This document shows positions 1 to 53,590 of a DNA stretch of 64,000 nucleotides, in pieces. The stretch is taken from positions 2,611-66,610 of the forward strand of contig CANQHE010000002.1 of assembly GCA_947623735.1 (NCBI GenBank). The letters run 5' to 3'. Position numbers and translations under genes: made by a program. The stretch comes from an uncultured Bacilli bacterium (GTDB taxonomy: Bacteria > Bacillota_I > Bacilli_A > RF39 > UBA660). How positions within the stretch are numbered: the stretch's first letter is position 1; each line of letters opens with the position of its first letter. Below the pieces are notes generated by a model that did not search any database, was not told where the DNA came from, and saw only the letters and a program-made list of their open reading frames with translations.

Positions 1-474
1 ATTAGTCTTTTAGGGATAGTTTCTTTAAAAGAAAATGATATTTTAATTCCTAATAATGCGATTAGATTTAGAGTGATTGCTAATAGTAATAGTTTAGAAG
101 ACCAAAAAAAGAAAATGATAATTAAAGAAGATATTGAAAAAGAAGTTTATGAGTTAATTAATAACGCAAATAATACTAATGAGGTGAGAAATATTATTAA
201 TAATAATTTAGATAGTATTGATAATATTGTTAAAAAGTATGAAGTTCCTTATAATATTAATTTTGGTTATAATTATTTTCCGAAGAAAAATTATAAAGGA
301 GTAATGTATCCAGAAGGGAATTATGAGTCTTTAGTTATTACTCTGGGAGATGGGTTAGGTGATAATTTCTGGTGTGTGCTTTTTCCACCCCTTTGTTTAA
401 TTGATAACACAAGTGAAGATACCGCCGAAGTAGAATATAAATTTTTAGTAAAAGAAATTTTAGATAAGTTCTAA
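1..474 (+). CDS. spoIIR: Stage II sporulation protein R (SpoIIR), N-terminus cut by window edge
   Basis: The frame is open from nt 1 (ISLLGIVSLKENDILIPNNAIRFRVIANSNS...), so the ORF-track start at 73 is internal. RFRVIANSNS-EDQ and FWCVLFPPLC motifs are typical of SpoIIR. Confidence 0.8.
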   Translation: MSLLGIVSLKENDILIPNNAIRFRVIANSNSLEDQKKKMIIKEDIEKEVYELINNANNTNEVRNIINNNLDSIDNIVKKYEVPYNINFGYNYFPKKNYKGVMYPEGNYESLVITLGDGLGDNFWCVLFPPLCLIDNTSEDTAEVEYKFLVKEILDKF

Positions 475-478
475 AATT

Positions 479-515
479 AAAGCCTCGCAAATAATATTTT
501 TTGGGAGGCTTTTTT
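479..515 (+). terminator. Possible intrinsic terminator after spoIIR
   Basis: AAAGCCTC (479-486) pairs with GAGGCTTT (505-512), followed by a T-run. The loop is long (18 nt), and the 3' arm doubles as the SD of the next gene. Confidence 0.4.
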
Positions 516-1049
516 ATGGGAGAAATATTTAGTATTATCTTAATTGGAATTGCTCTTAGTATGGATACTTTTTCGCTTTCTTTGGGACTAGGAATGCAAG
601 ATATTTCTAATGAAAAAGCATTAAAACTTTCTTTAGTGGTAGGATTAATGCACTTTATTATGCCCTTTTTAGGGATGATACTCGGGAGTAAGTTGGTCCA
701 AATATTCGAGGTTAAGGCGGATATTCTGTTAGGAATTATTTTAATTTTTATTGCAATAGAAATGATTATGCAATTAATTAAGGGAGAAGATGAGGCTTTT
801 AATTTAACAATGCTCGGAATATTTTTATTTGCTTTTGGGGTTAGTATTGATAGTTTTTCAGTAGGAATTGGGATTAAAGCCTTAACAAGTAATATTTATA
901 TAGCAATGGGTGTTTTTAGTATTTGTAGTTTTCTTTTTACTTTTATAGGAGTTATGGGAGGAAGATGGGCTAATAAAATACTGGGTGTGTATGCGAATAT
1001 TTTGGGAATAATTATTTTATTTGTTTTGGGTTTGGTTCATTTAATTTAA
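516..1049 (+). CDS. DUF204-family membrane protein (MntP manganese exporter / YtaF-like)
   Basis: ATG 516 is preceded by GGGAGG. The protein is hydrophobic throughout and carries duplicated LSMDTFS / SIDSFSVG motifs characteristic of MntP/YtaF proteins. Confidence 0.65.
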   Translation: MGEIFSIILIGIALSMDTFSLSLGLGMQDISNEKALKLSLVVGLMHFIMPFLGMILGSKLVQIFEVKADILLGIILIFIAIEMIMQLIKGEDEAFNLTMLGIFLFAFGVSIDSFSVGIGIKALTSNIYIAMGVFSICSFLFTFIGVMGGRWANKILGVYANILGIIILFVLGLVHLI

Positions 1050-2636: not shown

Positions 2637-2822
2637 AAATTAAGGACGAGATAGAACCCGCGGTACCACCTTAATTCATGATTTTTTCATGCTCTTTACT
2701 TTTAACGCAAGTTTTACGATTAAACTCCGGAGTCATCTTCCATATTATTTATTATTCGTTTACAGCAACCACGAACTTTCTTTGAATAAATAATATGTAC
2801 TCATTCCTTCAACATTTATGTA
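2637..2822 (-). promoter_or_regulatory. T-box riboswitch leader of metG
   Basis: The minus strand reads AATTAAGGTGGTACCGCGGG (plus-strand 2657-2676), which is the conserved T-box sequence. A candidate AUG (Met) specifier sits at 2741-2743 in AAUAAUAUGGAAG. A T-run precedes the metG SD. Confidence 0.8.
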
Positions 2823-8765: not shown

Positions 8766-9481
8766 TTTGTCACATCCTTTTTAAAGATATTTTGATATGT
8801 TTTGGTATCACGATTAATAATTTTACTATAAACTTTGGTACCGGGACGAGCATTTTTAACAAATTTCATCAGAACCATTATAGCATCTTTTTCGAGGTTT
8901 GAGTAAATAAATGTTATATTTTTGACAGTTAATTTATATTTTTGAGCGAGGGTGATTATTTCGGCTAAGCGAGTGGGACGATGAACTAAATAAAAGGCAC
9001 CGTAATCTTTTAAAAGATAGTTTACAGTTTGAAAAATTTCTTCTAAAGTAATTGATATTTCATGGCGAGCCATGGCTTTGGATGGTGAAGCATTTATAAG
9101 GGAGGTTTTTTCATATTTAAAAAATGGGGGGTTACAGGTTATAATGTCAAAATTATTTCCCGGGAAATAATTGTTAGTATCTTTCGCGTTAATGTTTAAC
9201 ATTGTAATTTGATTTTCGAGATGGTTATAGAGAATACTTTTGGTTGCTAAACGACAAATATCCGGATTTATTTCAACTCCGGTTATTTTTAAGTTAGAGT
9301 GGTTGGCTAAAATTAAAGGAAGGGGCGCATTACCACTACATAAATCGAGTAAATTTTGAGCTTTAGGTGGAATTTCAACAAATTCGCTTAATAAAAGGGA
9401 GTCGAGAGAAAATTTGAAACTACTCGCATCTTGGTAGATTTTTAAATTATAGTCGTATAAATCATTTAATTGGGCATTCAT
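8762..9481 (-). CDS. SAM-dependent N6-adenine methyltransferase (YabB / tRNA1(Val) m6A37 TrmN6-like)
   Basis: SAM motif LLDLCSGNAP and catalytic CNPPFF. Start set at ATG 9481 (MNAQLND..., SD GGTGA). Confidence 0.75.
   Translation of the reverse strand: MNAQLNDLYDYNLKIYQDASSFKFSLDSLLLSEFVEIPPKAQNLLDLCSGNAPLPLILANHSNLKITGVEINPDICRLATKSILYNHLENQITMLNINAKDTNNYFPGNNFDIITCNPPFFKYEKTSLINASPSKAMARHEISITLEEIFQTVNYLLKDYGAFYLVHRPTRLAEIITLAQKYKLTVKNITFIYSNLEKDAIMVLMKFVKNARPGTKVYSKIINRDTKTYQNIFKKDVTK
9155..9168. promoter_or_regulatory. Noc-binding-site-like palindrome ATTTCCCGGGAAAT
   Basis: Perfect 14-bp match to the B. subtilis NBS consensus. It extends to TTATTTCCCGGGAAATAA and lies inside the methyltransferase gene. 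Confidence 0.7.
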
Positions 9482-10265: not shown

Positions 10266-11121
10266 GGCTACCTCGCATTTCTATAACAAATTTGTCTAAT
10301 ATTAGTTCGATACTTACATTATAACTCATATTGGTTAAAATTTGACTAATTATTTGCATTTTTTCTTGAATTTTTTCTTTATCTTCGGGAAGAGAGTAAA
10401 TAGATACTATTTCTTCATTATATTTTAAGTTATTTAGTTTTAAAAAAGTTTGATAATAAATAGCTAGGATAATTTTGAAAATGTTTTCGATATCTTCGCG
10501 ATTCGGAAATTCGTTAAGCAAGAAAGTCTTATGATTAATAAATTCTTGATTATAAATGGCTGCTAAATATAGTTTTATTTTGGAGATGTAAGTAGAAATT
10601 ATTTCCCGGGAAATATTTAGAGTGGATTCTAGAGAAGAATCATCGTATTTTAAAGTGTAAATTTGACAACGACTTTTGATAGTGTCGATCATAATATCTT
10701 TGTTAGTAGTTAGGAAAAAGCCTAAAATACCAGGAGTTGGTTCTTCAAGGAATTTTAACATTGCATTGGCACTACTGGCGTTTAGTTTTTCTGCATTTTT
10801 GATAATATAAATGTTATACTTACTATAAATAGGTTTGGTGCTGAAAGAAACTTTTAAATCTTCGATTTCTTTTTTTTTGATATTAGCGCCGTCAGGTTCA
10901 ATTATTTTTAGACTGGGTAGATTTTCCAGATTAATTAGATTGCATAAATTACAATTACAACATTTTTCTTGGTAATTTTCGGGACAATTAAGATTTTTGA
11001 TTAATAGTTTTATATCATTTAAGGCGAGATTTAAATTGTTTGTCTCAAGCAAATAAGCATGAGAGAGCTTGTTCTCATGATACTTTTGTAAAATTTCATT
11101 TAGGACTTCAGTTTGAGACAT
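10258..11121 (-). CDS. holB: DNA polymerase III delta' subunit
   Basis: LSHAYLLE motif, zinc module CPENYQEKCCNCNLCN, SANAMLKFLEEP and SRCQ motifs. Confidence 0.85.
   Translation of the reverse strand: MSQTEVLNEILQKYHENKLSHAYLLETNNLNLALNDIKLLIKNLNCPENYQEKCCNCNLCNLINLENLPSLKIIEPDGANIKKKEIEDLKVSFSTKPIYSKYNIYIIKNAEKLNASSANAMLKFLEEPTPGILGFFLTTNKDIMIDTIKSRCQIYTLKYDDSSLESTLNISREIISTYISKIKLYLAAIYNQEFINHKTFLLNEFPNREDIENIFKIILAIYYQTFLKLNNLKYNEEIVSIYSLPEDKEKIQEKMQIISQILTNMSYNVSIELILDKFVIEMRGSHE
10601..10614. promoter_or_regulatory. Noc-binding-site-like palindrome ATTTCCCGGGAAAT
   Basis: Perfect 14-bp palindrome inside holB. It encodes NISREII. Confidence 0.7.
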
Positions 11122-14439: not shown

Positions 14440-14451
14440 TTTATCCTCCAT

Positions 14452-14529
14452 AAAAAAAGTGCACACAAATAGGGATTGATGTGGCTGCTACTTTCCAGTT
14501 CTGACCAGGTTACAATATATTTGTTGCAC
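14452..14529 (-). ncRNA. ffs: Small (4.5S-type) signal recognition particle RNA
   Basis: The minus strand reads GUGCAACAAAUA...CCUGGUCAGAACUGGAAAGUAGCAGCCACAUC...UAUUUGUGUGCAC plus a U-run. The domain IV motif GGUCAG..GGAA..AGCAGCC and a closing helix are present. Confidence 0.8.
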
Positions 14530-14570
14530 GATATAAATGTATCACATTTTTTTAGTTTTGGCAAGAGGAA

Positions 14571-14586
14571 TGTTTCACGTGAAACA
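14571..14586. promoter_or_regulatory. parS site 1 (TGTTTCACGTGAAACA)
   Basis: Perfect 16-bp palindrome matching the ParB/Spo0J parS consensus tGTTnCACGTGAAACa. Confidence 0.85.
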
Positions 14587-14645
14587 TATTTTTTTGTTTT
14601 TTTGACATTTTTTAAAAATTTTATAAGTTTTTTCATTTGAGACAA

Positions 14646-14661
14646 TGTTTCACGTGAAACA
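14646..14661. promoter_or_regulatory. parS site 2 (TGTTTCACGTGAAACA)
   Basis: Perfect 16-mer. The palindrome extends to 22 bp (14643-14664). Confidence 0.85.
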
Positions 14662-14782
14662 TTGTTTATAACTTTTTAATAATTTATTTTTTAATTTAAA
14701 TAAAAATAGTATTTGTTGGTTATTTTATTGGTGGTTTTAATTTTATTTATATTTTTTTGTTTGAAAATGTTTTTTGGAACAA

Positions 14783-14798
14783 TGTTTCACGTGAAACA
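14783..14798. promoter_or_regulatory. parS site 3 (TGTTTCACGTGAAACA)
   Basis: Perfect 16-mer. The palindrome extends to 24 bp (14779-14802). Confidence 0.85.
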
Positions 14799-14940
14799 TT
14801 GTTAGTAAATTTTGAATTATAAGAAAAATTATTCAAGTTTTAGTTTTTAGTTAAAACAATTATCATTTAATTATTAAACATTAATTATTTTATGAAATTT
14901 CAATTCATTAATTATAAATTAGTTTATTTTAAGTTGATAA

Positions 14941-14956
14941 GGTTTCACGTGAAACA
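14941..14956. promoter_or_regulatory. parS site 4 (GGTTTCACGTGAAACA)
   Basis: One terminal mismatch to the 16-mer. Confidence 0.75.
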
Positions 14957-15019
14957 TATGTTGATAATTTATTGCTTTTAATTCCAGTGTTATTCCATTG
15001 ATTACTTTTTGTGATTCAA

Positions 15020-15035
15020 TGTTTCACGTGAAACC
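15020..15035. promoter_or_regulatory. parS site 5 (TGTTTCACGTGAAACC)
   Basis: One terminal mismatch to the 16-mer. Confidence 0.75.
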
Positions 15036-15063
15036 TTTTATAATTTTCCATATGTTTTATTAG

Positions 15064-15072
15064 TTATCCACA
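15064..15072 (+). promoter_or_regulatory. Isolated perfect DnaA box TTATCCACA
   Basis: Exact 9-mer, 29 bp from parS site 5 and 50 bp from the gyrA stop. Confidence 0.5.
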
Positions 15073-15121
15073 TTATTTTTTTGATTTATCTATTTATAAA
15101 AAAGGACATAAAAAAACTGCT

Positions 15122-17560
15122 CTAAGCAGTTTCTTCAGTTATTTCTGGTTCTTCTGGTTGTTTATCAACTAAGCTTATGGTTGTAACGAACTGATTCTCT
15201 TTAAGATTTATTAATCTAACACCTTGGGTAACACGTCCTAAAGTATTAATTTGTTCTAAGGACATTCTCATAGTAGTACCAGTATTAGTCATAATTACTA
15301 ACTCTTTATTTTCTAAAGCTACTTTAACACTGGCGATATTACCATTCTTTTCCGTTAGATTAAGGGCTTTTACACCTTTACTACCACGGCTTGTTTCTCT
15401 AAATTCTTTTACTAATGTTTTTTTACCATAACCTTTTTCAGTTACTAACAATATTTTATCATCTTCGGTTACTACTTCAGCACAGACACATTTGCCACCA
15501 TCAAGATTGATTCCTTTAACACCAGAAGCTGTACGACCCATAGCGCGGATATTCTTTTCATTGAATTTAACCATACGACCTTTTTCACTACCTAGTAACA
15601 CATAGTTTTCACCAGATGTTTTCTTGACGGCTAGTAGTTCATCGTTTGATTTAAGGCTAATACATATTTTGCCAGACGTACGTATGTTTGTAAACTCGTT
15701 AATTGATGTCTTTTTAACGAGGCCATTTTTGGTTACAAATAACAAATATTTAGTTTCTTCATTTGGTGAAATACTAAGCATTGTGTTTATTGTTTCGTCT
15801 TTATCTATCTGTAACAAGTTTATAATTGGAAGGCCTTTAGATTGACGATTGAATTCAGGAATTTCGTATCCTTTTAAGCGATATACTTTACCTTTATTAG
15901 TGAAGAAGAGCAAATAATCATGACTTGAGAGATTAATTATTTGTTCGACGAAATCTTCTTCATTTGTTGTCATGCCTTTGATACCCATGCCTCCACGTTT
16001 TTGAGCTTTAAAAGTATCTGATGTAGTACGTTTAATATAACCTTTATTAGTTAAAGCAATAAGAATATCTTCTTCAGGAATTAGCGATTCATCTTCGATA
16101 TATTCAATTGCACTCATATCGATATCAGTACGACGTTTATCACCATATTTTTCTTTTATTTCTAATAGTTCATCTTTAATTATAGCAAGAACTTTTTCTT
16201 CGGATGCTAAAATACTTCTTAATTCATCGATTAGAGCTAAAAGTTCTTTTAATTCAGCTTCAATTTTATCTCTTTCTAAACCGGTTAATCTTCTTAGACG
16301 CATTTCTAAGATGGCTTCTGATTGAGCTTCGGATAGGTTAAATTTGGTCATTAAACCTTCTTTAGCTTCTTCATCAGACTGGGATGCACGAATAAGTTTA
16401 ATTACCTCATCAATGTGGTCTAAAGCTATTTTTAAACCCTCTAAAATATGAACACGTTTTTCAGCTTTATCTAAATCGAATTTAGTACGACGAATTATTA
16501 CTTCTTTTTGATGGTCAATATATTTAGAGATAATGTCTTTTAGACCTAAAGTTTTAGGAACACCATTATCAAGCATTAAGAAAATAATTCCATATGTTGT
16601 TTGAAAAGCGGTATGTTTATACAATTTATTTAAAATAACACTGGCATTGGCATCTTTTCTTAAAGATATAGTAATTTTAACTCCGTCTTTTAAGTCGACG
16701 TGATAATCAGTTATACCATCTAAAACTTTATTATGGACAAGTTCGGCCACTTTATTTTTTAGTTCAAGAGTATTTACACCATAAGGGACTTCGTTTACCA
16801 CGATGTATTCGCGGCCATTTTTTTCTTCAATAGTAGCCCGAGAACGAATAGTGATACTACCACGACCGGTTTCGTAGGCTTTTTTAATGCCACTGTTGCC
16901 TAAAATAATGGCGCCCGTTGGAAAGTCCGGACCTTTAATGTATTCCATTAAGCCAGCGGTATCAATATCGGGGTTATCGATATAAGCAATACAACCATCG
17001 ATTACTTCGCCTAAATTATGAGGAGGAATATTAGTTGCCATACCTACAGCAATACCCATCGTACCATTTACTAAAATATTAGGAAATCTTGAAGGCAAGA
17101 CGGCGGGTTCTTTAGTGGTTTCATCATAGTTGGGAGTAAAATCAACTGTATCTTTATTGATATCTCTTAGTAATTCCATGGAAATCTTAGCAAGTTTCGC
17201 CTCAGTATAACGATAAGCGGCCGCGCCATAACCTTCGATGTTACCAAAGTTTCCATGACCATCTACTAACATATAACGATAGTTGAAGTCTTGGGCCATA
17301 CGAACCATCGCTTCATAAATACTAGAGTCACCATGAGGGTGATATTTACCCATAACGTCACCAACTATAGTGGCACTTTTTCGGTATTGTTTATCGGGAG
17401 TTAGACCATTTTGAAGCATATCGTATAAAATACGACGATGGACTGGTTTTAGACCATCTCGTAAATCGGGTAAAGCACGAGAGACTATAACACTCATGGA
17501 ATACTCTAAAAATGATTTACTTATTTCATCTACTATATTATTTTTTTCAAATTTATCCAT
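15122..17560 (-). CDS. gyrA: DNA gyrase subunit A
   Basis: The active-site region [11 protein letters not shown], the QRDR-like [18 protein letters not shown], and a C-terminal beta-pinwheel. Confidence 0.96.
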
Positions 17561-17570: not shown

Positions 17571-20575
<3,005 letters not shown>

Positions 20576-20664: not shown

Positions 20665-21117
20665 TTAAAGGTATTTTTTATTATTTCGACCTCTTAAAGC
20701 AGATTCTAAACGAGTTGCCCGAAGGACTTGATGGTCAAAAATAGAATAAGTGATATTTAAAGTTATTTTTTGATTATTTTTAAACTCAATTAAGACTTTT
20801 TTATTGGGATGTGGATAATAATTTAAGATATTATTTAAGGTTATCCAAGCACATTTAGTATTCCTAATAGAATGAGTGGGTATTAAGATTAATTTAGTAG
20901 CATCATTTAAGATAATTGGGGGTTTATAATTAGAACCAATTAAATAGGAACTTCCTTTTTGACGACCTTCAAGACTGGAGCCATGAATGTAGCAATTACG
21001 TGTTATTATCTCACTCGTTTTTTCGGAAACAACAAAGTTACTCGTCATTTCGATAATATGACTTTTTTTACCTTTCGGAATAATTGCATTCGTTTTTTCA
21101 TTTATTATATAGGGCAT
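20665..21117 (-). CDS. comK: ComK-family competence transcription factor homolog
   Basis: NCYIHGSSLEGRQKGSSYLIGSNYKPPIILND...LIPTHSIRNTKCAWITLNNI aligns well with the B. subtilis ComK core (RFFGSSYAGRKAG...HKPPIMVDP...FPT...C-WI). Confidence 0.75.
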   Translation of the reverse strand: MPYIINEKTNAIIPKGKKSHIIEMTSNFVVSEKTSEIITRNCYIHGSSLEGRQKGSSYLIGSNYKPPIILNDATKLILIPTHSIRNTKCAWITLNNILNYYPHPNKKVLIEFKNNQKITLNITYSIFDHQVLRATRLESALRGRNNKKYL

Positions 21118-22508: not shown

Positions 22509-23849
22509 CTACAATTTTGATTTTATCTCCTTAATAGTTGTTTCTAATTCTTTGTTAGTCATGAGCTCTTTTTCGATTTTATCACAGGCAAATATGACCG
22601 TAGAATGGTCGCGACCTCCAAATTCTAAACCAATTCTGGGAAATGTTTCATCTGTTTCCAACCGGCATAAATACATGGCTAATTGTCTAGGATGGGCTAC
22701 TTTATTGCTCCTTTTTTTGCCTTTTAAATCGTCAATTGTAATGTTATAATGGTCGGCGACGGCTTTTTGGATTTTGGTAATATTATTGTTTGAATAGATG
22801 TTTTTATTAACAAAATCTTTTAAGGCTTCACAAGTAAATTCTAAATCAATTGATTTGGGAACAATCATCGCGGTGTAAGCCATGAGTCTATTTACGGCAC
22901 CTTCTAAAAATCTAACATCATTTTGACAAGCATTCGCGATATATTCAATGCTTTCTTCTTTAATTAAGTTAGCAATGCTGGTGTTTTCAAGTTTTTTTCT
23001 TATTATCCGGCATCTTAAATCAAAATCGGGAGGATAAATATCGACTGGAAGACCCCACATAAATCGTGAACGAAGGCGTTCCTCTAAAATTTTTAAATCA
23101 TCGGGGGAACGGTCACTACTGATAATTATCTGTTTGTTGGATTGATGAAGATAATTGAAGGTGTTAAAAAATTCTTGCTGGGTTTTTTCAGCCCCGACGA
23201 GATACTGGATATCATCTATTATTAAAACATCAATATTACGATATTTATTTTTAAATTCGGTAGCATATTCTAAAGTGTTTTTAGCATTGTCAGGATTAGC
23301 AATGTTAGTATATTCGGTCATAAATTCATCACAGGTGCAATAAAGAACCCGCCGGTTAGAACTTTTAGTAATATAATTTCCTATCGCATGCATTAGATGA
23401 GTTTTTCCTAAACCACTTTTGCCATATATAAATAAAGGATTATGAATACGGCCTGGAGCTTCAGCGACAGCCATCGCGGCGACTTTAGCAAGACGATTAG
23501 TATCCCCGACGACAAAATTATCAAAGTTTAAGTTAGGGTTTAGATTGCTATTATAATTATTGTTGGTAATTTCTTCTTTATCAACAGTGGGAGGAGGGAT
23601 ATTGGTAATTTCCTCTTCTAATATGAATTCAATATCATAATTGATGTTCGTTATTTTATAGAGAGTTTGTTCAATTAAAGAATAGTAATTATCACCGAGC
23701 ATTTTTTTATGGATTTCCATGGGAACTTGGAAAGTTATTTTGGTGTCGGTTAGATTAATTATTTTTAAGTCATTAAACCAGGCATGGAAAGAAGCTGGAT
23801 TTATTTCTTTATATATGTTGTCTAAAAATTTTTTTAATAAGTCTTCCAT
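22509..23849 (-). CDS. dnaA: Chromosomal replication initiator DnaA
   Basis: Walker A GKSGLGKTHL, box VII/sensor motifs, and the C-terminal DNA-binding HSTV region (GGRDHSTVIFA). Start set at ATG 23849 (MEDLLKKF). The ORF-track N-terminal extension is low-complexity intergenic read-through. Confidence 0.95.
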   Translation of the reverse strand: MEDLLKKFLDNIYKEINPASFHAWFNDLKIINLTDTKITFQVPMEIHKKMLGDNYYSLIEQTLYKITNINYDIEFILEEEITNIPPPTVDKEEITNNNYNSNLNPNLNFDNFVVGDTNRLAKVAAMAVAEAPGRIHNPLFIYGKSGLGKTHLMHAIGNYITKSSNRRVLYCTCDEFMTEYTNIANPDNAKNTLEYATEFKNKYRNIDVLIIDDIQYLVGAEKTQQEFFNTFNYLHQSNKQIIISSDRSPDDLKILEERLRSRFMWGLPVDIYPPDFDLRCRIIRKKLENTSIANLIKEESIEYIANACQNDVRFLEGAVNRLMAYTAMIVPKSIDLEFTCEALKDFVNKNIYSNNNITKIQKAVADHYNITIDDLKGKKRSNKVAHPRQLAMYLCRLETDETFPRIGLEFGGRDHSTVIFACDKIEKELMTNKELETTIKEIKSKL

Positions 23850-24035
23850 CTTATAACCACACCCCGCAGTCTTAACATTTACATGATAATTGTATCGCAA
23901 AAATTTAAGAAAGAAAAGAGTAAAAATGAAATTGTTAGTAAGTAGGTAGTTATAAACATGGTTTTCAATAGTAAAAAAAGGAAGTTTAGGACTTATGCAC
24001 ACTATCAACAAAATATAAAATAGCTTAATTAACAA

Positions 24036-24425
24036 TTAACAGTTAATAAAAATGGAGGAAAAGTTAATTATGTTGATAGTTTAAAGAAATTAGCTATTTT
24101 TGATAGGTATAATAAGGGATAGTTAAAAATCAGGAATTTGTTTATAAGTTATAGTTTATAAACAATTTAAGGGAAAAAGAGAGTTGACAAGATATGCGAG
24201 GAAGAGTTTTTAGAAAATTATAGTTGTTTATAAGTTGTTTACGAAAAAAATTATCCACATTATCCACAATTTAGTGTTGATAACTTGTAAAGATTTGACA
24301 AGTTTTGTTAAATATTTTTTAAATAGTTTAGAATTTTTAAAATGAATTATGGGGTTTAAAGATATTTTAAATTGAAGATATATTGAAGTTTCTCTTTTGA
24401 TTAGACGATAAAAGCTTTAAAAAAC
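24036..24425. promoter_or_regulatory. oriC segment (dnaA-rpmH intergenic) with DnaA boxes
   Basis: Two abutting perfect TTATCCACA boxes at 24251-24259 and 24260-24268, a one-mismatch box (TGTTGATAA) at 24275-24283, and several TTATAAACA-type degenerate boxes at 24139-24240. Confidence 0.8.
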
Positions 24426-26701: not shown

Positions 26702-27595
26702 ATGAGTGAAGAAGAATATCGTAATATTTTAGATGAGTGGTATAGTAAAGAAGAAGTTGATAAAATAATTTTAGGAGAAAAAGAAAAGAGATTAGTATCA
26801 CTTCGAATTAATAGGTTAAAAGCGAATCAAGAAGAAATTATGAATGTTTTAGATAACCACTTTATAGAATATCAAAGAGTTAGTTGGTATCCTGATGCTT
26901 TAATTATTTTAAATAAAAAAGAAGCTGATATAGAAAAATTAGATATATATAAAGATGGAAAGATATATTTACAGAGTTTATCATCGATGATTCCGCCTTT
27001 AGTTTTGGGGGCAAAGCCTTTAGAAAGTGTGTTAGATATGACATCAGCACCAGGAGGAAAGACGAGTGAAATAGCCGCCCTTCAGAATAATCAGGTACTT
27101 ATTACAGCAGTAGAAAAAAATAAGATAAGAGCAGAGAGACTTAAATATAATTTAGAAAAACTGGGAGTTAAAAAAACAACAGTAGTCGTTAAGGATGCTA
27201 GGGAATTAGATAATAATTTTAAATTTGATAAGATTCTTCTTGATGCTCCATGTAGTGGAAGTGGGACTTTAAGAATAATTGATGGAAAAATAATTGATAA
27301 TTTTAGTTTTGAATTAATAAAAAAAGTAGAAAATTGGCAAATAGAGTTACTTAGAAAGGCAATTTCTTTGGTAAATATAGGGGGAATTATTGTTTATTCA
27401 ACGTGTTCAATTTTAAATAGGGAAAATGAGGATATTGTTAAAGAGTTTATTAATGAAGGATTAGTGGAAGTATTAGATATAGAAGAATTCAATGAGGATT
27501 TATTTAGAAATTCTACTATAAATGGGGCTTTAAAAATATTACCAGATAAGTTTTATGAGGGATTCTTTGTTGTTAAATTAAAAAGAATTAAATAG
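26702..27595 (+). CDS. NOL1/NOP2/Sun-family RNA m5C methyltransferase (RsmB/RsmF-like)
   Basis: DMTSAPGGKTSEIA, LLDAPCSGSGTLR and YSTCS motifs. Confidence 0.8.
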   Translation: MSEEEYRNILDEWYSKEEVDKIILGEKEKRLVSLRINRLKANQEEIMNVLDNHFIEYQRVSWYPDALIILNKKEADIEKLDIYKDGKIYLQSLSSMIPPLVLGAKPLESVLDMTSAPGGKTSEIAALQNNQVLITAVEKNKIRAERLKYNLEKLGVKKTTVVVKDARELDNNFKFDKILLDAPCSGSGTLRIIDGKIIDNFSFELIKKVENWQIELLRKAISLVNIGGIIVYSTCSILNRENEDIVKEFINEGLVEVLDIEEFNEDLFRNSTINGALKILPDKFYEGFFVVKLKRIK

Positions 27596-27679
27596 TAAAG
27601 ATAACTACTAAATATTGTTTTTAAGTTGTTAAAAGGATATAATATAAGAGAACTATGATAATAGAGAAAGGAGAAATTT

Positions 27680-27871
27680 ATGGGTTTATTCAGTTTTTTA
27701 TTAGATGATGATAAGAAAAAAGATAATGATGATTTGATAGATGTTGAAGGGAAGGCTCTTGGACTTACTAAAGAAGAAATAGAAGAGTGTAAAAGAGATA
27801 AAATAACCCCTCAAGAATGGCTTAAAGAAAATGATATAGAAAATTATCATGATCAAGATTTAGATGATTAA
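27680..27871 (+). CDS. Small acidic hypothetical protein
   Basis: 63-aa ORF with SD AAAGGAGAA and an upstream TTGTTT-17-TATAAT promoter-like sequence. No recognisable family. Confidence 0.5.
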   Translation: MGLFSFLLDDDKKKDNDDLIDVEGKALGLTKEEIEECKRDKITPQEWLKENDIENYHDQDLDD

Positions 27872-27877
27872 AAAAAT

Positions 27878-29065
27878 CTAAATAAGACCATATTTAGATT
27901 TTAAAGTTAAGATTTTAGTAACTGAAGAATTAATTTGTTCTTCGGTTATTTTATTTTCGGCGATTAATTCTTTTATTAAATCAATTACATTATCTTTGTT
28001 ATTAGGCATTAAAAGAAGGTCTACTCCGGCATTAATAGCTAATTCATAAACTTCTTTATCTGAGTAGTTTTTGGTAATAGCTTGCATATTTAAGGCATCG
28101 GTTATGACGAGGTTTTGATAGCCTAATTCATTTTTTAATAAATCGGTTATTAAAGTTTTGGAAAGAGAGGCGGGAGTATTATCATTGGTGATGCTCGGAA
28201 TGGCTAAATGACCGATCATGATTACGTCAGCACCTTTATTTATGGCTTCCATAAAAGGAATAAGTTCAAGTTCTTTTAATTCTTCTTTAGTTTTAGTAAT
28301 TACAGGTAAATCATAATGTGAATCTGTTGCTGTGTCACCATGGCCGGGGAAGTGTTTATATATGGGAATGATATTGTTATCTTTGAGACCATTTTGAAGG
28401 GCAATACCCATTTTGGCAACTAAATAAGGGTTACTTCCAAAACTACGATTACCTATAACAGTATTGTTTATATTAGAATAAACATCAATTACAGGAGCAA
28501 AGTCCATATTGATATTGAAATCTTTTAGGATTTCAGCTATTTTAACACCGGTATTATAAGCAATATTCTCATCATTTGTAGCACCTATTTCACTCATAGG
28601 GGGGATTTTTTCATAAGGATAGTTTAAAGTATTTTCAATTCTATCAACTCTTCCTCCTTCTTCATCAATACCCATAAACATCGGGATATTAGATAAAGAA
28701 TTAATAGATTCAATAAAATTTAGGGAGGAATTATATTCTTGTAAGTTTTCTTTAAAAAGAATGAAACCACCAGGTTTTAGAGTGTTGAGGTAATTTGTTA
28801 ATTTTTCATCAACATTAGGGTAACGATATTCGATAATTAACATTTGGCCTATTTTTTCTTCAAGTGTTAAACTATTTAGAAGATTATTTATTTTTTGCTC
28901 TTCTTTCTTTTTTTCAAGTTCGTCAGTATTAATAGCTGGAATATCAAATTCGGGTAGTTCTTTTTTGGGGACACTGGCAATTTTGCTTTCTGATAGAAGG
29001 AAAACTCCTATAGCTATACTAAATATAATAATAATCGTAATTAATAATAAATATTTTTTACTCAT
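27878..29065 (-). CDS. Glycoside hydrolase family 3 beta-N-acetylhexosaminidase (NagZ/YbbD-like), membrane-anchored
   Basis: GQMLIIEY, GIDEEGGRVDR and KHFPGHGDTATDSH motifs, plus an N-terminal TM helix. Confidence 0.85.
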   Translation of the reverse strand: MSKKYLLLITIIIIFSIAIGVFLLSESKIASVPKKELPEFDIPAINTDELEKKKEEQKINNLLNSLTLEEKIGQMLIIEYRYPNVDEKLTNYLNTLKPGGFILFKENLQEYNSSLNFIESINSLSNIPMFMGIDEEGGRVDRIENTLNYPYEKIPPMSEIGATNDENIAYNTGVKIAEILKDFNINMDFAPVIDVYSNINNTVIGNRSFGSNPYLVAKMGIALQNGLKDNNIIPIYKHFPGHGDTATDSHYDLPVITKTKEELKELELIPFMEAINKGADVIMIGHLAIPSITNDNTPASLSKTLITDLLKNELGYQNLVITDALNMQAITKNYSDKEVYELAINAGVDLLLMPNNKDNVIDLIKELIAENKITEEQINSSVTKILTLKSKYGLI

Positions 29066-29185
29066 AATAATACCTCTATATTTGTTATTCCCTGAATTTA
29101 TATTTTTATTATACTATTATTCTAAAAAATTCGCTAGAGATTTTGGAAACTTAAAAATAATTTGCAAATAGGATGATAATTTTTG

Positions 29186-29219
29186 AAAATAAAAAAACTT
29201 GCTATTTGGTAACAAGTTT
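29186..29219 (-). terminator. Intrinsic terminator of htrA
   Basis: Minus strand: AAACTTG-ttaccaaatag-CAAGTTT, followed by T7. The stem includes the last codons of htrA. Confidence 0.65.
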
Positions 29220-30308
29220 TACATTAATTTCAGTTTCATGATTATTTCTGATAATAGTTAAGGTCATTGTGTCGCCGGCTTTATGTTTATATAAATAATA
29301 TCTTAAGTAAGCTGATGAAGAAATATCTTTGCCATCAACTTTAGTGATAATATCTTCTTCCTTAAGTCCGGCAAGAGCAGCGGAACTGTGATCTTCAACA
29401 AGAGTTATAACGACACCACTCGTAATATTGGCACTTTTAATTAAGTTATAGTAATCTCTTGTGTAATAAGCTTCGGCAACATCAAGCATTCCAATGCCTA
29501 AATATGGTCTTTTTACTTCTTCGCCATTAATTAATTGTTCAGCAATATCTAAAGCATTTTCGATTGGAATTGCAAAGCCCATACCTTCGATGGCTTCGCT
29601 TGCTAGTTTAATAGATGTTATTCCAACTACTTCCCCATTAGAGTTAGCAAGAGGTCCACCAGAGTTACCACTGTTGATAGCCGCATCAGTTTGGAGAGTA
29701 TTTACAACCATAGGGGTAGATGTATTACCACTAGTTAATTCGACTTCGACTTCGCGGTCTTTGCCAGAAACAATACCACGGGTAACACTCCAAGAATAAG
29801 CATTATCAATAGGGGCACCAATCGCAAAAACTGTATCTCCTAAGCGTATACTTTCACTAGTACCTAATTCGGCAACGGTAAGAATATTTTTCTTAGGTAC
29901 TGATAAGACAGCGATATCAGAATAGACATCACTACCGACGATTTCAGTTTTAACATTGGTATCATCAGTAAATGTCGCGGTTACAGTATCGGCATTATTG
30001 ATAACATGGTTATTAGTTAGAATATAAGCCGTATCACCATCAGTTCGAAAGACAAAACCAGTCCCGGAAGCATAAGGTTTATTATTTATGTAGGTATTTA
30101 CGACGACAACCGCATCATAAACTTTTTCAACCGCATCCGCAATACCGGTGTCAGTGATAGTTACATCTTTTTCTAACTTAGTTTTAGTTGTTTCGGTAAT
30201 AATTGGGAAGAAATAAATTAGGGCATACATACCTCCCATACCAATAAATATGGCAATTAATATAACTATGATGTTTTTGATATTATTTTTGTTTTTTGTT
30301 TCGTTCAT
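29202..30308 (-). CDS. htrA: HtrA/DegP-family serine protease with PDZ domain
   Basis: N-terminal TM helix, catalytic GNSGGPL, the TNNHV histidine region, and a C-terminal PDZ domain. Confidence 0.9.
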   Translation of the reverse strand: MNETKNKNNIKNIIVILIAIFIGMGGMYALIYFFPIITETTKTKLEKDVTITDTGIADAVEKVYDAVVVVNTYINNKPYASGTGFVFRTDGDTAYILTNNHVINNADTVTATFTDDTNVKTEIVGSDVYSDIAVLSVPKKNILTVAELGTSESIRLGDTVFAIGAPIDNAYSWSVTRGIVSGKDREVEVELTSGNTSTPMVVNTLQTDAAINSGNSGGPLANSNGEVVGITSIKLASEAIEGMGFAIPIENALDIAEQLINGEEVKRPYLGIGMLDVAEAYYTRDYYNLIKSANITSGVVITLVEDHSSAALAGLKEEDIITKVDGKDISSSAYLRYYLYKHKAGDTMTLTIIRNNHETEINVKLVTK

Positions 30309-30309
30309 T

Positions 30310-31239
30310 TTAATCCATCCTTACTATTTCTTTGTAATTTTCAGGGAACCCCATTCTATCTAAAACTTTATTAATATTTATGGTATGTAAGCGACCTGAT
30401 AGATAATCAATTTCATAAGATATTTCATTTAACATCATGTGGAAATCATCTTTGCGAAGTAATCTTTTTAAAATAATTATGAGGGAAAATAAATCGTTAA
30501 TACCATAGATATATTCCCCGTTGGTTTTAGGAATATTTAATAATTGATGATATTTAGTGATAGGTATTTCTTTTTGGGTTTTGTGTTCGTAACAGATATC
30601 TTCATGAGCACAGAGATTGCGATAATTAGCAATTATAGGAAGATATACAAGTAAACTATCAATATCGACGTTAAAGATATTGGCAATACTTTCTTGGTCT
30701 TCTTTTTTTAAAATGGTGTATAACTCACCGACGATACCAAAAGATAAGACTTTAACAACTATCCAAGGAGGTAAATAGCCATAGTTAGTTTGGTAATGTC
30801 TGGTGGCTGCGTGTTCTTTACCATTAATGATAATTTGCCTTTTAACTTTTTTTAAAAGGTCATTTACTTGGCGACTTTTTTTAGGGTCCCGCGTAAAGTT
30901 GCTTGGATTTAAATATTTCTTTTCTTTAAAACCGTATTTTTTTGATAGTTCATAGGATAAAATACTTTTTATGTTGTTTTCTAATATTAAGATGTTTTTG
31001 AAGAGAATGTTTCTTAATTGGCGGTCAAAATAGAATAAAGCATATATTTCACGAAAGTTGGCGCCATCTAAGTAAGTTCTTTCAGTTAGAGATTTCATAA
31101 AAAGATAACGATATCCATTAATGAAGAAATAGTTCTCCCGAAGAAGAATGTCTTTCACATATTCTTCATCATCAATAATGAGGTTTTTATTTCTTAATAT
31201 GGTAATCTGTTCTTCTAGGGTTTTAAATATTTTTTCCAT
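30310..31239 (-). CDS. Abi_2 (AbiD/AbiF-like) abortive-infection family protein
   Basis: LRENYFFINGYRYLF and YALFYFDRQLRNILFKNILILENNIKS resemble the Abi_2 family. Start set at ATG 31239 (SD AGGTGA). The stop lies 1 nt before the htrA ATG. Confidence 0.7.
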   Translation of the reverse strand: MEKIFKTLEEQITILRNKNLIIDDEEYVKDILLRENYFFINGYRYLFMKSLTERTYLDGANFREIYALFYFDRQLRNILFKNILILENNIKSILSYELSKKYGFKEKKYLNPSNFTRDPKKSRQVNDLLKKVKRQIIINGKEHAATRHYQTNYGYLPPWIVVKVLSFGIVGELYTILKKEDQESIANIFNVDIDSLLVYLPIIANYRNLCAHEDICYEHKTQKEIPITKYHQLLNIPKTNGEYIYGINDLFSLIIILKRLLRKDDFHMMLNEISYEIDYLSGRLHTININKVLDRMGFPENYKEIVRMD

Positions 31240-31385
31240 TTGCTTCACCTATTATTACATTATACCACAAAGAACGATTATATTGTATAAAAATAAGTTG
31301 ATTTATATGTTAATTTTATGTGAAAATTTAGTGAAATTCGCTTTTTTGGAAGAATTGTGGTATAATTAGATTCGAGGTGGGATAT

Positions 31386-32339
31386 ATGCCAGCTTGTTAT
31401 ACGCATCATGTTTTTACAAAAGATGTTTATAAAGTTATTGATGATAAGATTAAAGAAAAGATGGTAAATGCTCAAGATTTATTTAATTTGTTTGGTAAAA
31501 GTTTTGATGTTTTATTCTTTTCTAGAGCTAAGTTAGGACATTTTGCTCATAATAATAATGTTAATTTGTATTTTCAAAATATTATTAAATATATAAGAGA
31601 TAATAATTTACAGGATAATGGAGATGTTTTAGCATATTTATATGGTTCAATATGTCATTATGTGCTTGATTCGACGTGTCATCCTTATATTTATTATAAA
31701 ACGGGAAAATATAATAAAAAAGATAAAAAAACATGGAAGTATAAAGGACTTCATAATTATTATGAATATATGATAGATGCCATCATTTATCAAGATAGAA
31801 ATTTAAAAAATATTAAAAAAGCTAAACTTAGTAAAGAGTGTTTTCCAAGTGTTACTTTTAGTTTAGAACTTAAAAGTGCGATAGAATATGCTTATGCGAA
31901 TACTTTTTGTGCAATAAAGGCTAGTAGTGCGGTTTATACAGGATATTATAATTATCGTTTTATTATGAAGCATGGATTTGAGTCGCATTTTGGAATTAAA
32001 AGGGGGCTTTATAAAATTATTGATAAAACTAATTTAGTAAAGGCTTTAAATTTTAGTCCTCTTTGTTATAATAAAAAAGAACTTGATAAAAGTGTGCTTA
32101 ATTTAGAACATAATAAATGGTATTATCCGGTTGATAGAAAGATTAATTATCATTATTCTTTTTATGATCTTTATGATTTAAGTATTGAAAAAGCAAGAAA
32201 ATTAATTAATATGATAGATGAAGCTTTAGATAAAGATGATACTAGTATAAATAAAGTTTTAAAAGAAATAGGAGACAATAGTTATTGTACAGGTAAAAAA
32301 GCCGGGAAAAAATATAAAAATCAAATATATGAATTTTAA
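31386..32339 (+). CDS. Zinc-dependent phospholipase C family-like protein
   Basis: N-terminal MPACYTHHVF and the His-rich HFAHNNN / CHYVLDSTCHPY motifs are reminiscent of that family. ATG 31386 is preceded by GAGGTGG. Confidence 0.5.
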   Translation: MPACYTHHVFTKDVYKVIDDKIKEKMVNAQDLFNLFGKSFDVLFFSRAKLGHFAHNNNVNLYFQNIIKYIRDNNLQDNGDVLAYLYGSICHYVLDSTCHPYIYYKTGKYNKKDKKTWKYKGLHNYYEYMIDAIIYQDRNLKNIKKAKLSKECFPSVTFSLELKSAIEYAYANTFCAIKASSAVYTGYYNYRFIMKHGFESHFGIKRGLYKIIDKTNLVKALNFSPLCYNKKELDKSVLNLEHNKWYYPVDRKINYHYSFYDLYDLSIEKARKLINMIDEALDKDDTSINKVLKEIGDNSYCTGKKAGKKYKNQIYEF

Positions 32340-32986
32340 TAGTAATTTATGATAGCATCAGCGATAGCCTGGGCTATTTTTTGCTGGTAAGAACTTGATT
32401 CTAGTTTGTTTTTTTCAGTATAGTTAGATAAAAAGCCGCATTCAATTAAAACTCCGGGAATAGTTAGTTTATCATACATATAGGTTTTAGAAGGTATTTT
32501 TTTAATTTGGCGATTACCATTTAAGACTTTATTTAATGTTTCTTGGAAAACCATGGCGATTTCTTTATTTTCATCATTATTATAAAATACTTGAGGGCCA
32601 GAATAGGAAGAATCATTTAAATAGTTTAAATGAATAGAAACATACATATCTCCTTTACTTTCATTAATTAGTTTAATCCGGTTATCAAAGTCACTTTTTT
32701 TGCGATAGGTGGCATTGGGACTACTTAAATCATAATCATTATCTCTTGTTAATATTACTTCCGCGCCCATTTTTACAAGTTCAAGTTCTAAGTATTTACT
32801 AATTTTTAAATTAATATCTTTTTCATAAGTGGTGCCACTTGATGTTCCTGGGTCAGCTCCACCATGACCAGCATCGACAATTATTAATTTACCACTTAAG
32901 GGCAACATGGCACTTACTTTTGCACTAATAAAGATAGTACTTAAAAAGATAAGCGTAATAATAATTATTTTTATTTTTGGTTTCAT
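32336..32986 (-). CDS. cwlD: N-acetylmuramoyl-L-alanine amidase (Amidase_3; CwlD-like germination amidase)
   Basis: Signal peptide, IIVDAGHGGADPGT, SIHLN and ECGFLSN motifs. Size and sporulation context fit CwlD. Confidence 0.7.
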   Translation of the reverse strand: MKPKIKIIIITLIFLSTIFISAKVSAMLPLSGKLIIVDAGHGGADPGTSSGTTYEKDINLKISKYLELELVKMGAEVILTRDNDYDLSSPNATYRKKSDFDNRIKLINESKGDMYVSIHLNYLNDSSYSGPQVFYNNDENKEIAMVFQETLNKVLNGNRQIKKIPSKTYMYDKLTIPGVLIECGFLSNYTEKNKLESSSYQQKIAQAIADAIINYY

Positions 32987-33033
32987 GGTAATATATATGA
33001 ATAATTAATTAAAATAATTACGTATAAAGAAGT

Positions 33034-33726
33034 TTATTTCTTTAAAGATTTTTTACCATAATGTTTTAGAATTATTTCAGTTTCAATTTCTAAAGGGTCG
33101 ATAAAATTATCCGGTAATTTAAGTGCCTTTTTTAGAATAGATAATTCTGTACAGCCGAGAATGAAATAGTTACAATTACTGTTATTTATGATATTATTCC
33201 AGATATCTAAGTCAATATCTTGACCTTTTTTGACATTTTCAAAAATTATATGCATTATTCCTTCTTGGTCTTTGTCATTTAATATTTGATAAGATATGTC
33301 ATATTTTTTACAGGCATCTTGATAGAGATGGGATTCTATAGTTCCAGTAGTAGCAAGAATTAAAACATTATCCATATTATTATTTTTTAAATATTTAACT
33401 GTTTCTTCAATTAAATTTAAAATAGGAATATTTACTTCTTGTTGTAAATCTTTCCAGAAATAGCAAGCTGTATTACAGGGAATAGCAATTAAATCAGCAC
33501 CCATTTTTTCAAGAGTTTTAACATCATTTTTAAGGTCAGGATAGGGATTATCTTTACTTTTACCGAGAATATAGGCGGTTCTATCAGCGATAGTAGCATG
33601 ACTTAGTAAAACCATATTTATGTGGTCTTGGTCTTTGGTGGCTTCAGTATTTGTAGTTATTAATTCATAAAAGTATGAACTAGCAAGAGGACCTAAGCCT
33701 CCGACGATTCCTAAAAAATTTTTCAT
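33034..33726 (-). CDS. Aspartate/glutamate racemase family protein
   Basis: GIVGGLGPLASSYFY, IPCNTA and LGCTELS motifs. Confidence 0.85.
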   Translation of the reverse strand: MKNFLGIVGGLGPLASSYFYELITTNTEATKDQDHINMVLLSHATIADRTAYILGKSKDNPYPDLKNDVKTLEKMGADLIAIPCNTACYFWKDLQQEVNIPILNLIEETVKYLKNNNMDNVLILATTGTIESHLYQDACKKYDISYQILNDKDQEGIMHIIFENVKKGQDIDLDIWNNIINNSNCNYFILGCTELSILKKALKLPDNFIDPLEIETEIILKHYGKKSLKK

Positions 33727-33734
33727 AATATTAC

Positions 33735-34301
33735 CTACTTTCTATTTTTATTAAAATTTTTAATGAAATAATAAGTTATACAAGCAAGAGAACTAGTGAA
33801 GAAAATTAATGATAGCATTAAATATAAAATATTGTTTTTGGAATCTATTACATCAAGATAGATACTTCCAAAATAATTATTGAAATCAGCTTCAGTTATA
33901 GTATTTCCCATTTGACTATCGTTATAGACTTTAATGGCTAAATTTTTTACAGTTTCATTCGTGGGTTTAGTTACACCATAAATGGTTTTAGTGTTGGTAG
34001 TACTGGCATCGGCTAATTTATGATAAACATTATCAGACATATAAGCGATATAAAAATATGAATTATCATAAACAATATAATAACCTTTATTTTCTTCCCC
34101 AGTTACTTTGGCAAAAGAATAGGGTGGGTTAACAATTTTTAAATTAGCATATATATCAGTAGTATTATCATTTTTAATCGCATCATTTAAGTATATACTA
34201 TTAAAGGGAGCGTTAAGATAAATATATAAAACTAAAATAATTATACCAATGATAAAAAGGGGAATACTTATAAATAATAAATTATAATTTTTCTTTTTCA
34301 T
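33735..34301 (-). CDS. Hypothetical membrane protein (N- and C-terminal TM helices)
   Basis: 188-aa ORF with two hydrophobic segments flanking a polar domain. No family recognised. Confidence 0.5.
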   Translation of the reverse strand: MKKKNYNLLFISIPLFIIGIIILVLYIYLNAPFNSIYLNDAIKNDNTTDIYANLKIVNPPYSFAKVTGEENKGYYIVYDNSYFYIAYMSDNVYHKLADASTTNTKTIYGVTKPTNETVKNLAIKVYNDSQMGNTITEADFNNYFGSIYLDVIDSKNNILYLMLSLIFFTSSLACITYYFIKNFNKNRK

Positions 34302-34380
34302 TTAAAACACCTAATAGTATTATAGCATATTTAGTAGTTTTTTTTAAGATTTTATTTAATTTAGAAATTTATATGATAAA

Positions 34381-34424
34381 TTTACAATTTGTAAATTGTT
34401 TCTATTAGAAATATATGCTATAAT
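34381..34424 (+). promoter_or_regulatory. Promoter with palindromic operator upstream of the XRE gene
   Basis: Palindrome TTTACAATTTGTAAA (34381-34395) abuts TTGTTT (34396-34401), then a 17-nt spacer and TATAAT (34419-34424). Confidence 0.45.
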
Positions 34425-34494
34425 TATAAAGGATATAATTATATTATATATGGCTATACTCCTAAATTTAAATATGTGAAAGGATTTAGGATAT

Positions 34495-34761
34495 ATGTTA
34501 TATGTAAAAGAATCGAGAGGTGATATCTTCAAAATAATTGGCGCTAATGTGAGGTATTATCGAGGATTATATAATATAAATCATCCTGATAAAAGAATTA
34601 GTCAGGCAAAAATGGCCGAAATGTGTAATGTTTCGACAGGTCTTATTGGTTCTTTAGAAACAGGTAAAGTACTTGGAATAAGTATACCCGTATTATATAA
34701 TATTTCTCAGATATTAAATGTTAGTATTGATAAGTTTTTTGAAGATAGAACTAAACGATAA
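34495..34761 (+). CDS. XRE-family helix-turn-helix transcriptional regulator
   Basis: HTH_3-like ISQAKMAEMCNVSTGLIGSLETGK. Confidence 0.75.
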   Translation: MLYVKESRGDIFKIIGANVRYYRGLYNINHPDKRISQAKMAEMCNVSTGLIGSLETGKVLGISIPVLYNISQILNVSIDKFFEDRTKR

Positions 34762-34772
34762 AAAAACAGGTA

Positions 34773-35108
34773 TTAGTCAGATGTACCTGTTTTTCTTATA
34801 ATTATTTCATTTGGTCTTGTATATAAATATTTTTCTTTAGCATAACGTTCCATGTATTCGGGGTTTTTTAGTTTTTGAACTTCCGCTTTTAAGGCTTCTT
34901 CATTATTTAATAGTTCTTCATAATTGCTTTCTAAAAGGGCTATTTCTTTGTTATTAGCCATAATTTTTAACCAGTCAGGAAAGATATTAATGCACATAAA
35001 AGTTACAATAAATATGAAGATTATAACAAAAAGTGTCATACGTCTTCGTGCTTGTTTCGTAATTTTTTTTGGCATCATATCACCCCTATTTTGTTTTAAG
35101 TATAACAT
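34773..35108 (-). CDS. divIC: Septum formation initiator DivIC/FtsB family
   Basis: Basic N-terminus, one TM helix, and a coiled coil (LESNYEELLNNEEALKAEVQKLKNPEY). Follows yabP-yabQ as in Bacillus. Alternative starts at ATG 35078/35075. Confidence 0.8.
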   Translation of the reverse strand: MLYLKQNRGDMMPKKITKQARRRMTLFVIIFIFIVTFMCINIFPDWLKIMANNKEIALLESNYEELLNNEEALKAEVQKLKNPEYMERYAKEKYLYTRPNEIIIRKTGTSD

Positions 35109-35709: not shown

Positions 35710-35762
35710 TAAATATTTCTCCTTTTATAAAATAATATGCTTTTAATGGTAAATTATGCCAA

Positions 35763-35785: not shown

Positions 35786-35786
35786 C

Positions 35787-53579: not shown

Positions 53580-53590
53580 TTACAAGTTAA

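Follow-up and report, generated by a model that had tools for sequence, protein, structure and literature searches.

The 64-kb stretch of DNA analysed here, referred to below as the window, comes from an uncultured Bacilli bacterium and carries five copies of the palindrome TGTTTCACGTGAAACA at 14571-15035, three of them perfect and two with one terminal mismatch, in the gap between gyrA and ffs, the gene for the small signal recognition particle (SRP) RNA. A sequence-only reading of the window had pointed to these five palindromes and had likened them to the parS consensus of ParB/Spo0J; our search found all five again at the same coordinates, three perfect and two mismatched. The non-coding gap, estimated in that reading at about 590 bp, measures 586 bp, the gyrA open reading frame (ORF) ending at 15122 and the SRP RNA gene occupying 14450-14535 on the minus strand. 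The features of the gap, of its borders and of the presumed origin are as follows.

14450..14535, minus strand: ffs, small SRP RNA gene (Rfam RF00169, 54.1 bits against a gathering score of 40)
14536..14564, minus strand: promoter-like site of ffs (TTGCCA, 17 nt, TACATT, with an upstream TG), a consensus match and predicted only
14536..15121, no strand: non-coding gap holding the whole array, from the gyrA stop to the SRP RNA gene
14571..14586, no strand: parS-1, perfect TGTTTCACGTGAAACA, in an 18-bp palindrome (14570-14587)
14646..14661, no strand: parS-2, perfect, inside a 24-bp perfect palindrome (14642-14665)
14783..14798, no strand: parS-3, perfect, inside a 26-bp perfect palindrome (14778-14803)
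14941..14956, no strand: parS-4, GGTTTCACGTGAAACA, the sole mismatch being at the outermost position
15020..15035, no strand: parS-5, TGTTTCACGTGAAACC, with a mismatch at the outermost base
15109..15137, minus strand: intrinsic-terminator-like hairpin of gyrA, boundary of the array on the origin side
15122..17560, minus strand: gyrA (NCBIfam NF004043, 1151 bits), the landmark preceding the array throughout the lineage
24251..24283, no strand: DnaA-box cluster upstream of dnaA, two perfect boxes and one with one mismatch (boxes at 24251, 24260 and 24275)

On the side away from the origin the array is bounded by ffs. No other RNA gene was recognized in the gap, the remaining Rfam hits being chance matches below threshold, to snoRNA and miRNA families of eukaryotes, and its only ORFs are of low complexity, none of them credible. 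The surrounding genes lie on one strand in the order dnaA (22509-24035), dnaN, a ComK-family gene, recF, gyrB, gyrA and the array, followed beyond the array by the SRP RNA gene, tadA, dnaX, ybaB, recR, holB and ricT. The DnaA-box cluster is likely to be oriC. The array is situated 9.2 kb from this cluster and 7.5 kb from dnaA; about 8 kb had been given earlier for the latter. The perfect DnaA box noted beside the array (15064-15072) does exist, but it is a single box and the significance attached to it was not borne out: 23 boxes with at most one mismatch occur in the window against 20 expected, which is no enrichment. The box at 15064 was thus rejected as part of a box cluster and corresponds to the chance density.

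The search of the window for TGTTTCACGTGAAACA with up to two mismatches returned five matches, all within 14571-15035, and none outside the array. In 100 dinucleotide-preserving shuffles of the window the mean was 0.02 matches, and five were never reached. The successive sites are 75, 137, 158 and 79 bp apart, as reported before, and the whole array spans 465 bp; the extended palindromes, for which 22 and 24 bp had been given, were re-measured as 24 and 26 bp (around parS-2 and parS-3, respectively). Over 19 nt, flanks included, parS-4 is identical to the reverse complement of parS-5, the two forming an inverted repeat. The 48-nt surroundings of parS-2 and parS-3 are 85% identical, which suggests a local duplication.

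The match to the parS consensus TGTTNCACGTGAAACA, taken from Table 1 of PMC7022226, is 16/16 at three sites and 15/16 at the other two, in line with the initial identification. The site used by Noc, a paralogous CTP-dependent clamp, departs from parS in two bases of each half-site (PMC7383237, PMC8429893). In the Noc-binding site (NBS), ATTTCCCGGGAAAT, every half-site has A as its first and C as its sixth base, whereas all five sites of the window are parS-type: the 7-bp half-site (GTTTCAC) begins with G and has A as its sixth base, the exception being parS-5, where C replaces the outermost G in one half-site. Being of the G..A and not of the A..C type, the five sites are not Noc sites.

The conservation of the locus was followed in 80 related metagenome contigs anchored on the DnaA of the window (47-90% DnaA identity), most of them with 24-31% G+C and two outliers with 34% and 44%. 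As the anchor was DnaA alone, the sample is blind to parS. parS sites follow gyrA in all 33 loci that reach at least 300 bp past its 3' end, that is, in every relative long enough, and 32 of the 33 have at least two. Each of the 28 complete gyrA-tadA gaps contains parS, with 2-13 sites and a median of five: two sites in four gaps, three in four, four in three, five in five, six in one, seven in four, eight in three, nine in two, and 10 and 13 in one gap each. The same arrangement was found in eight species-representative metagenome-assembled genomes (MAGs) labelled 'Bacilli', 'Bacillota' or 'Mycoplasmatota', whose GyrA are 63-85% identical. Among these genomes the array is sometimes located in the tadA-dnaX gap, and two sites lie inside dnaX (L115, L003, L012). 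Outside the arrays next to gyrA, not one parS with up to one mismatch was present in 1,022,738 bp of origin-proximal DNA of the relatives.

This last result bears on whether the palindromes could be a dispersed hairpin repeat of the REP or MITE kind, or bidirectional terminators, with no role in segregation. Two of the sites do score as terminator-like hairpins with following T-runs. The scattering expected of a REP-like repeat, which the sequence-only reading had kept in mind, was seen neither in the window nor in the 1.02 Mb of related DNA, where no copy stands outside an array; the base sequence of the palindrome is invariant, without covariation or compensatory change; and T-runs are ubiquitous in the AT-rich spacer, only two of the five sites are terminator-like, and gyrA has a terminator of its own. 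We find this explanation hardly credible.

A logo built from 188 distinct sites shows an 18-bp palindrome, ATGTTTCACGTGAAACAT, with background composition directly outside it, and unlike this palindrome the spacers between sites are not conserved. Selection acts on the motif and not on the surrounding DNA. Within the 16-mer, common variation is limited to positions 5 (T/C) and 12 (A/G), of which the first is the N of the classical consensus and the second its mirror. The number of sites is itself variable. The largest array, L163:19187-19885, with 13 parS, is a recent tandem amplification: its 84-bp unit occurs 8.3 times, the copies being 89% identical, and two NBS come after it. Conversely, a strain contig 99.5% identical to the window lacks 60 bp including parS-2 (L001:10026-10027 versus window 14630-14689) and has four sites instead of five; its coverage is only about 3.7-fold, so that the deletion may be an assembly error. 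The repeats of L163, the difference of four versus five copies between strains and the duplicated flanks of parS-2 and parS-3 together suggest that arrays expand and contract by local duplication and deletion of units. Site and position are thus conserved, with turnover of copy number and spacers. Such a pattern is the mark of selection for a protein-binding motif that keeps one place on the chromosome, and it rules out chance, a dispersed repeat and a relic.

A protein-binding motif could also be that of a transcription factor, the palindromes being operators for ffs-tadA-dnaX, or for gyrA read-through, with a coincidental likeness to parS. Indeed, parS-1 precedes the -35-like hexamer of the ffs promoter by 7 bp, and all sites share the gap that contains this promoter. 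One promoter, however, needs no 5-13 copies over 0.5-1.7 kb, and the shift of relatives' arrays between the gyrA-tadA and tadA-dnaX gaps, together with the two sites inside dnaX, does not fit such a function. Moreover, the motif agrees with pan-bacterial parS in 14/14 specified positions and is found near parAB in at least 56 unrelated genomes. The operator explanation is very improbable.

We consider it highly probable from these data that the five palindromes are parS sites of the chromosome and together make up a compact centromere close to the origin; the cognate canonical ParB would then be encoded in the same genome, outside the window. By analogy with known systems, dimers of canonical ParB, a CTPase clamp of the Spo0J type, would load at each palindrome in a CTP-dependent manner, close around the DNA and slide outward onto its flanks. 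Five adjacent loading sites would raise the loading rate at a single address and thereby produce one ParB complex over the origin region. This complex would recruit SMC-ScpAB, aligning the chromosome arms, and where ParA is present it would be the cargo for origin segregation. In Bacillus subtilis, SMC complexes loaded at distant sites collide (bioRxiv 10.1101/2020.12.04.411900); a single compact loading zone could avoid such collisions. The placement between the gyrA terminator and the ffs promoter may in addition keep the sites free of read-through transcription.

Several negative results concerning the protein that reads the sites weigh against a ParB-dependent centromere. The window contains no ParB-family gene according to a motif scan and to Pfam and NCBIfam searches on essentially all ORFs of at least 100 aa, and the closest relatives (L125, L128 and L139) have none less than 10 kb from dnaA. 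The absence of mnmE-mnmG-rsmG-noc-parAB after jag in the window, already noted in the sequence-only reading, agrees with our gene calls. In relatives, a tblastn search with an approximate B. subtilis Spo0J sequence matched a ParB-like gene after jag-mnmE-mnmG-rsmG. This gene reaches 286-290 bits with the Noc model TIGR04285 (cut-off 315) but 183-191 bits with the general ParB model, and its helix-turn-helix (HTH), SQSTIANKLRLL(N/T)L...KISERHARAL, carries Q173, K179 and R201, the combination that specifies NBS rather than parS (Jalal et al., PMC7383237). It was consequently rejected as the cognate ParB: by its predicted specificity, the only origin-near ParB-family gene of the closer relatives is a Noc-type paralogue. 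In these relatives a convergent penicillin-binding protein (PBP) gene comes next after noc, then argS-prfA-prmC, and in none of the closer relatives examined does parA-parB occupy its usual slot behind noc. In the window the PBP-argS-prfA-prmC block has been retained, at 49.1-55.7 kb, but its neighbour mnmE-mnmG-rsmG-noc is gone too. We also considered that parA-parB had been cleanly deleted between noc and the DUF951 gene, and rejected this, the 61-aa ORF that follows noc in L209 being unrelated to DUF951; it looks like a split-off C-terminus of Noc.

Canonical ParB genes do occur further away. In the most distant relative, the outgroup L197, noc-parA-parB shares a contig with a parS pair beside gyrA, and the ParB of L197 (297 aa; HTH SRSHITN...SMGHARVL) has the canonical R173 and G201; with this exception, no canonical ParB was found in the 1.02 Mb of origin-proximal DNA of the clade. 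Sister genera abundant in the human gut have the order noc-parA-parB-DUF951-ychF-rpsF-ssb-rpsR. A cluster-representative and homologue search yielded a diverse candidate family of detached canonical ParB of 296 aa (P0243), 52% identical to the ParB of L197, on '[Bacilli bacterium]' MAG contigs with 28-31% G+C. Its parA-parB operon is located between tilS-ftsH and mscS-DUF951-ychF, away from noc, which is the arrangement to be expected for genomes whose noc has lost its parAB neighbours. It also counts against our interpretation that no contig is shared by this family and any gyrA array, among the overlaps with the window and the clade loci compared. In the sister genera and in the detached parAB family (L203-L208 and L212-L219), no parS was found within 10 kb of parA-parB or inside parB; B. 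subtilis, in contrast, has a site in spo0J.

Three perfect NBS are present in the window, where 0.35 matches with up to two mismatches are expected.

9155-9168: perfect NBS ATTTCCCGGGAAAT, inside a trmN-like gene
10601-10614: perfect NBS, inside holB
19836-19849: perfect NBS, inside recF

Their distance from the parS array is 4-5 kb, on both sides of it; no noc gene was found in the window. In the 1.02 Mb of the relatives there are 55 perfect NBS, where base composition predicts 0.002. The gyrA-tadA gaps, which represent 2.8% of this DNA, contain 31 of the 55, or 1.09 against 0.024 per kb, a 45-fold excess. NBS are present in 17 of the 28 complete gaps, at the edges of the array or inside it, in patterns such as N-S...S-N and S...S-N-N (N, NBS; S, parS). 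The arrays concerned are L143:11609-12706, L146:18809-20417, L149:18749-19429, L151:12452-13114, L159-L176 and L003:2962-3224. At unrelated loci with parS pairs, no NBS was found in 844 kb. The resemblance to the Noc-NBS system of nucleoid occlusion concerns the perfect NBS in the window and at the edges of relatives' arrays, and not the five parS-type sites.

The adjacency of NBS and parS in the same gap in these 17 relatives is as if one protein used both. It could mean that canonical ParB has been lost and that another protein, either a dual parS/NBS Noc-like paralogue or an unrelated helix-turn-helix protein, reads the sites in an origin-organizing or membrane-tethering role without ParABS. 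The lack of parA-parB after noc in the closer relatives, and of any canonical ParB in the origin-proximal DNA of the clade besides L197, speaks in its favour. On the other hand, the residues Q173, K179 and R201 of the Noc-like proteins specify NBS and not parS (PMC7383237), and these proteins are alike with or without a neighbouring ParB, as the comparison of L197 with the closer relatives shows. Among clade sites of the form NTT(T/C)CNCGNG(A/G)AAN, 207 are pure parS-type and 64 pure NBS-type, and the hybrids (G..C, A..A) that a promiscuous reader would tolerate are essentially absent; this fits two specific readers, ParB and Noc, as described in PMC7383237, rather than a single promiscuous one. 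The detached canonical parAB family in low-GC Bacilli MAGs is a further argument in the same direction. We regard the loss of ParB as unlikely.

If ParB and Noc each read their own sites, it is conceivable, albeit doubtful, that the centromere has separated from parAB and been re-established behind gyrA as a composite zone for the loading of both clamps, in which an expandable parS array loads ParB and the bracketing NBS load Noc. About half of the relatives have such NBS within the gap; in the window they stand on both sides at 4-5 kb. Noc loaded next to ParB would tether the centromere to the membrane or bound the ParB domain. Such a composite zone is undescribed for model Firmicutes, where NBS scatter around the chromosome. 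The recurrent pairing of parS arrays with NBS provides a lead on crosstalk between two paralogous clamps.

The Noc-like proteins of the clade (L133:7504-8964, L188:2031-3506, L137:2122-3351, L204:7694-9091) have 320-500 aa and a long acidic, Asn-rich linker between the HTH and a small C-terminal domain, which in L209 is a separate 61-aa ORF. They have no N-terminal helix like the membrane-targeting helix of B. subtilis Noc, for which residues K2, F5, S6, R7 and F9 are known (PMC4331003). A conserved internal motif, PNKFFNFLED, resembles this helix.

The sequence-only reading had considered a tight intergenic array to be exceptional and plasmid-like. To see how it compares with other chromosomes, we scanned one genome per species for two parS 40-70 bp apart and obtained at least 120 loci from many phyla; these counts leave out L001 and L002, which are contigs of the window species, and L003 was read as four sites from its coordinates. 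Among the 120 loci listed, the maximum number of sites within 600 bp is two in 58, three in 40, four in 13, five in seven, six in one and eight in one; that is, 62 loci have at least three, 22 at least four and nine at least five. A ParB gene is present in the same 8-kb piece in 61 of the 120 listed, with parS no more than 2 kb from it in 56, and among the multi-site loci listed the array is directly upstream of parA. According to a passage of a preprint, close clustering of parS is the rule and the scattering in Bacillus the exception (bioRxiv 10.1101/2020.12.04.411900, citing Livny 2007). With at least 22 listed loci having four or more sites in 600 bp, and with clustering described as the rule, the claim of rarity is not supported for a tight parS array as such; that of the window is real but rather ordinary as a chromosome-segregation site. 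A literature search for gyrA-linked parS arrays found nothing specific.

The plasmid centromeres F sopC and P1 parS consist of iterated plasmid-specific repeats adjoining their own parAB operon. They share with the array of the window a tandem, intergenic, multi-copy organization, and they grow by unit duplication, as the 84-bp unit of L163 recalls. The window differs from them in its universal chromosomal parS motif, its core-gene context and the absence of an adjacent par operon. A plasmid-type iterated centromere was accordingly rejected: the array is flanked by gyrA and ffs-tadA-dnaX in core-chromosomal synteny, with no par genes in 64 kb.

In B. subtilis, the parS sites are mostly intragenic, one of them within spo0J. 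This species belongs, like the source of the window, to the class Bacilli, and the two have in common the 16-bp consensus TGTTNCACGTGAAACA, an origin-proximal position of the sites and sporulation genes. The 10 parS of B. subtilis, eight of them in the origin domain, are scattered over about 0.75 Mb (PMC7022226; bioRxiv 10.1101/2020.12.04.411900), whereas the sites detectable in the origin region of the window are all in one intergenic gap, 75-158 bp apart and away from parAB. The parS clusters beside parAB in Pseudomonas aeruginosa (parS1-4), Caulobacter, Corynebacterium glutamicum, Streptomyces and many MAGs are similar in that close sites nucleate one complex near oriC and their number varies by species. 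In P. aeruginosa four parS are clustered near oriC (PMC7022226, PMC4368675), and clusters described in the literature extend over kilobases or tens of kilobases (PMC4368675, PMC7083940, PMC5815017). In contrast to these clusters, the array of the window comes after gyrA, on the opposite side of oriC from the usual parAB slot. The main role of pneumococcal parS, as Minnen reportedly found in 2011, is recruitment of SMC. Streptococcus pneumoniae, which has a ParB-parS system without ParA, likewise belongs to the low-GC Bacilli and has few parS, all near the origin (four of four in the origin domain, PMC7022226); its sites are dispersed and not tandem, and the candidate ParB family of the present lineage is encoded with ParA.

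The array is therefore a chromosomal parS cluster of a kind already known, and what is specific to the lineage is its address after gyrA, its separation from parAB and, in relatives, its association with Noc sites. If it functions as proposed, an uncultured gut-associated branch of the Bacilli gains a clearly defined single centromere, and the scattered parS layout of Bacillus would not be general for the class. The clade would also offer a natural series in which one locus carries from 2 to 13 identical ParB loading sites.

The window has about 29% G+C and encodes Spo0A, SpoIIR, YabG, YabQ and a SpoVT-like protein; because of these sporulation genes, the source organism is probably spore-forming. 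Its GyrA has an exact match in two metagenome contigs only, both short and of low coverage, and neither its MetG nor its last ORF is on record in identical form. The ComK-family gene between dnaN and recF (20665-21117, minus strand; PF06338, E = 4e-33) is kept in this place in most relatives with 23-58% identity; in Bacillus the slot is occupied by a small S4-like gene.

The regions flanking the origin are rearranged, with blocks at 26702-39255, 49074-55678 and 73-1049 displaced relative to the relatives. On the 3' side of jag, where mnmE-mnmG-rsmG-noc is missing, the window has an rsmB-like methyltransferase, GH3, HtrA-like and Abi_2 genes, XRE regulators and an HTH_38 (IS30-like) gene. The PBP-argS-prfA-prmC block, which abuts noc in relatives, is found at 49-55.7 kb, and spoIIR-mntP, which follows prmC there, at the opposite end of the window (73-1049). 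A T-box leader is located upstream of metG (2639-2821, minus strand; RF00230, 115 bits). The longest ORF of tadA begins with GTG at 14466 and shares 17 nt (14450-14466) with the 3' end of the SRP RNA gene; on the identical contig L001 the gene is called from a later start (146 aa), and the true start is thus probably downstream. Finally, six small abutting ORFs at 60768-62847 (minus strand), with weak matches to WXG100 and DUF5344, may represent a type VII secretion-related cassette.

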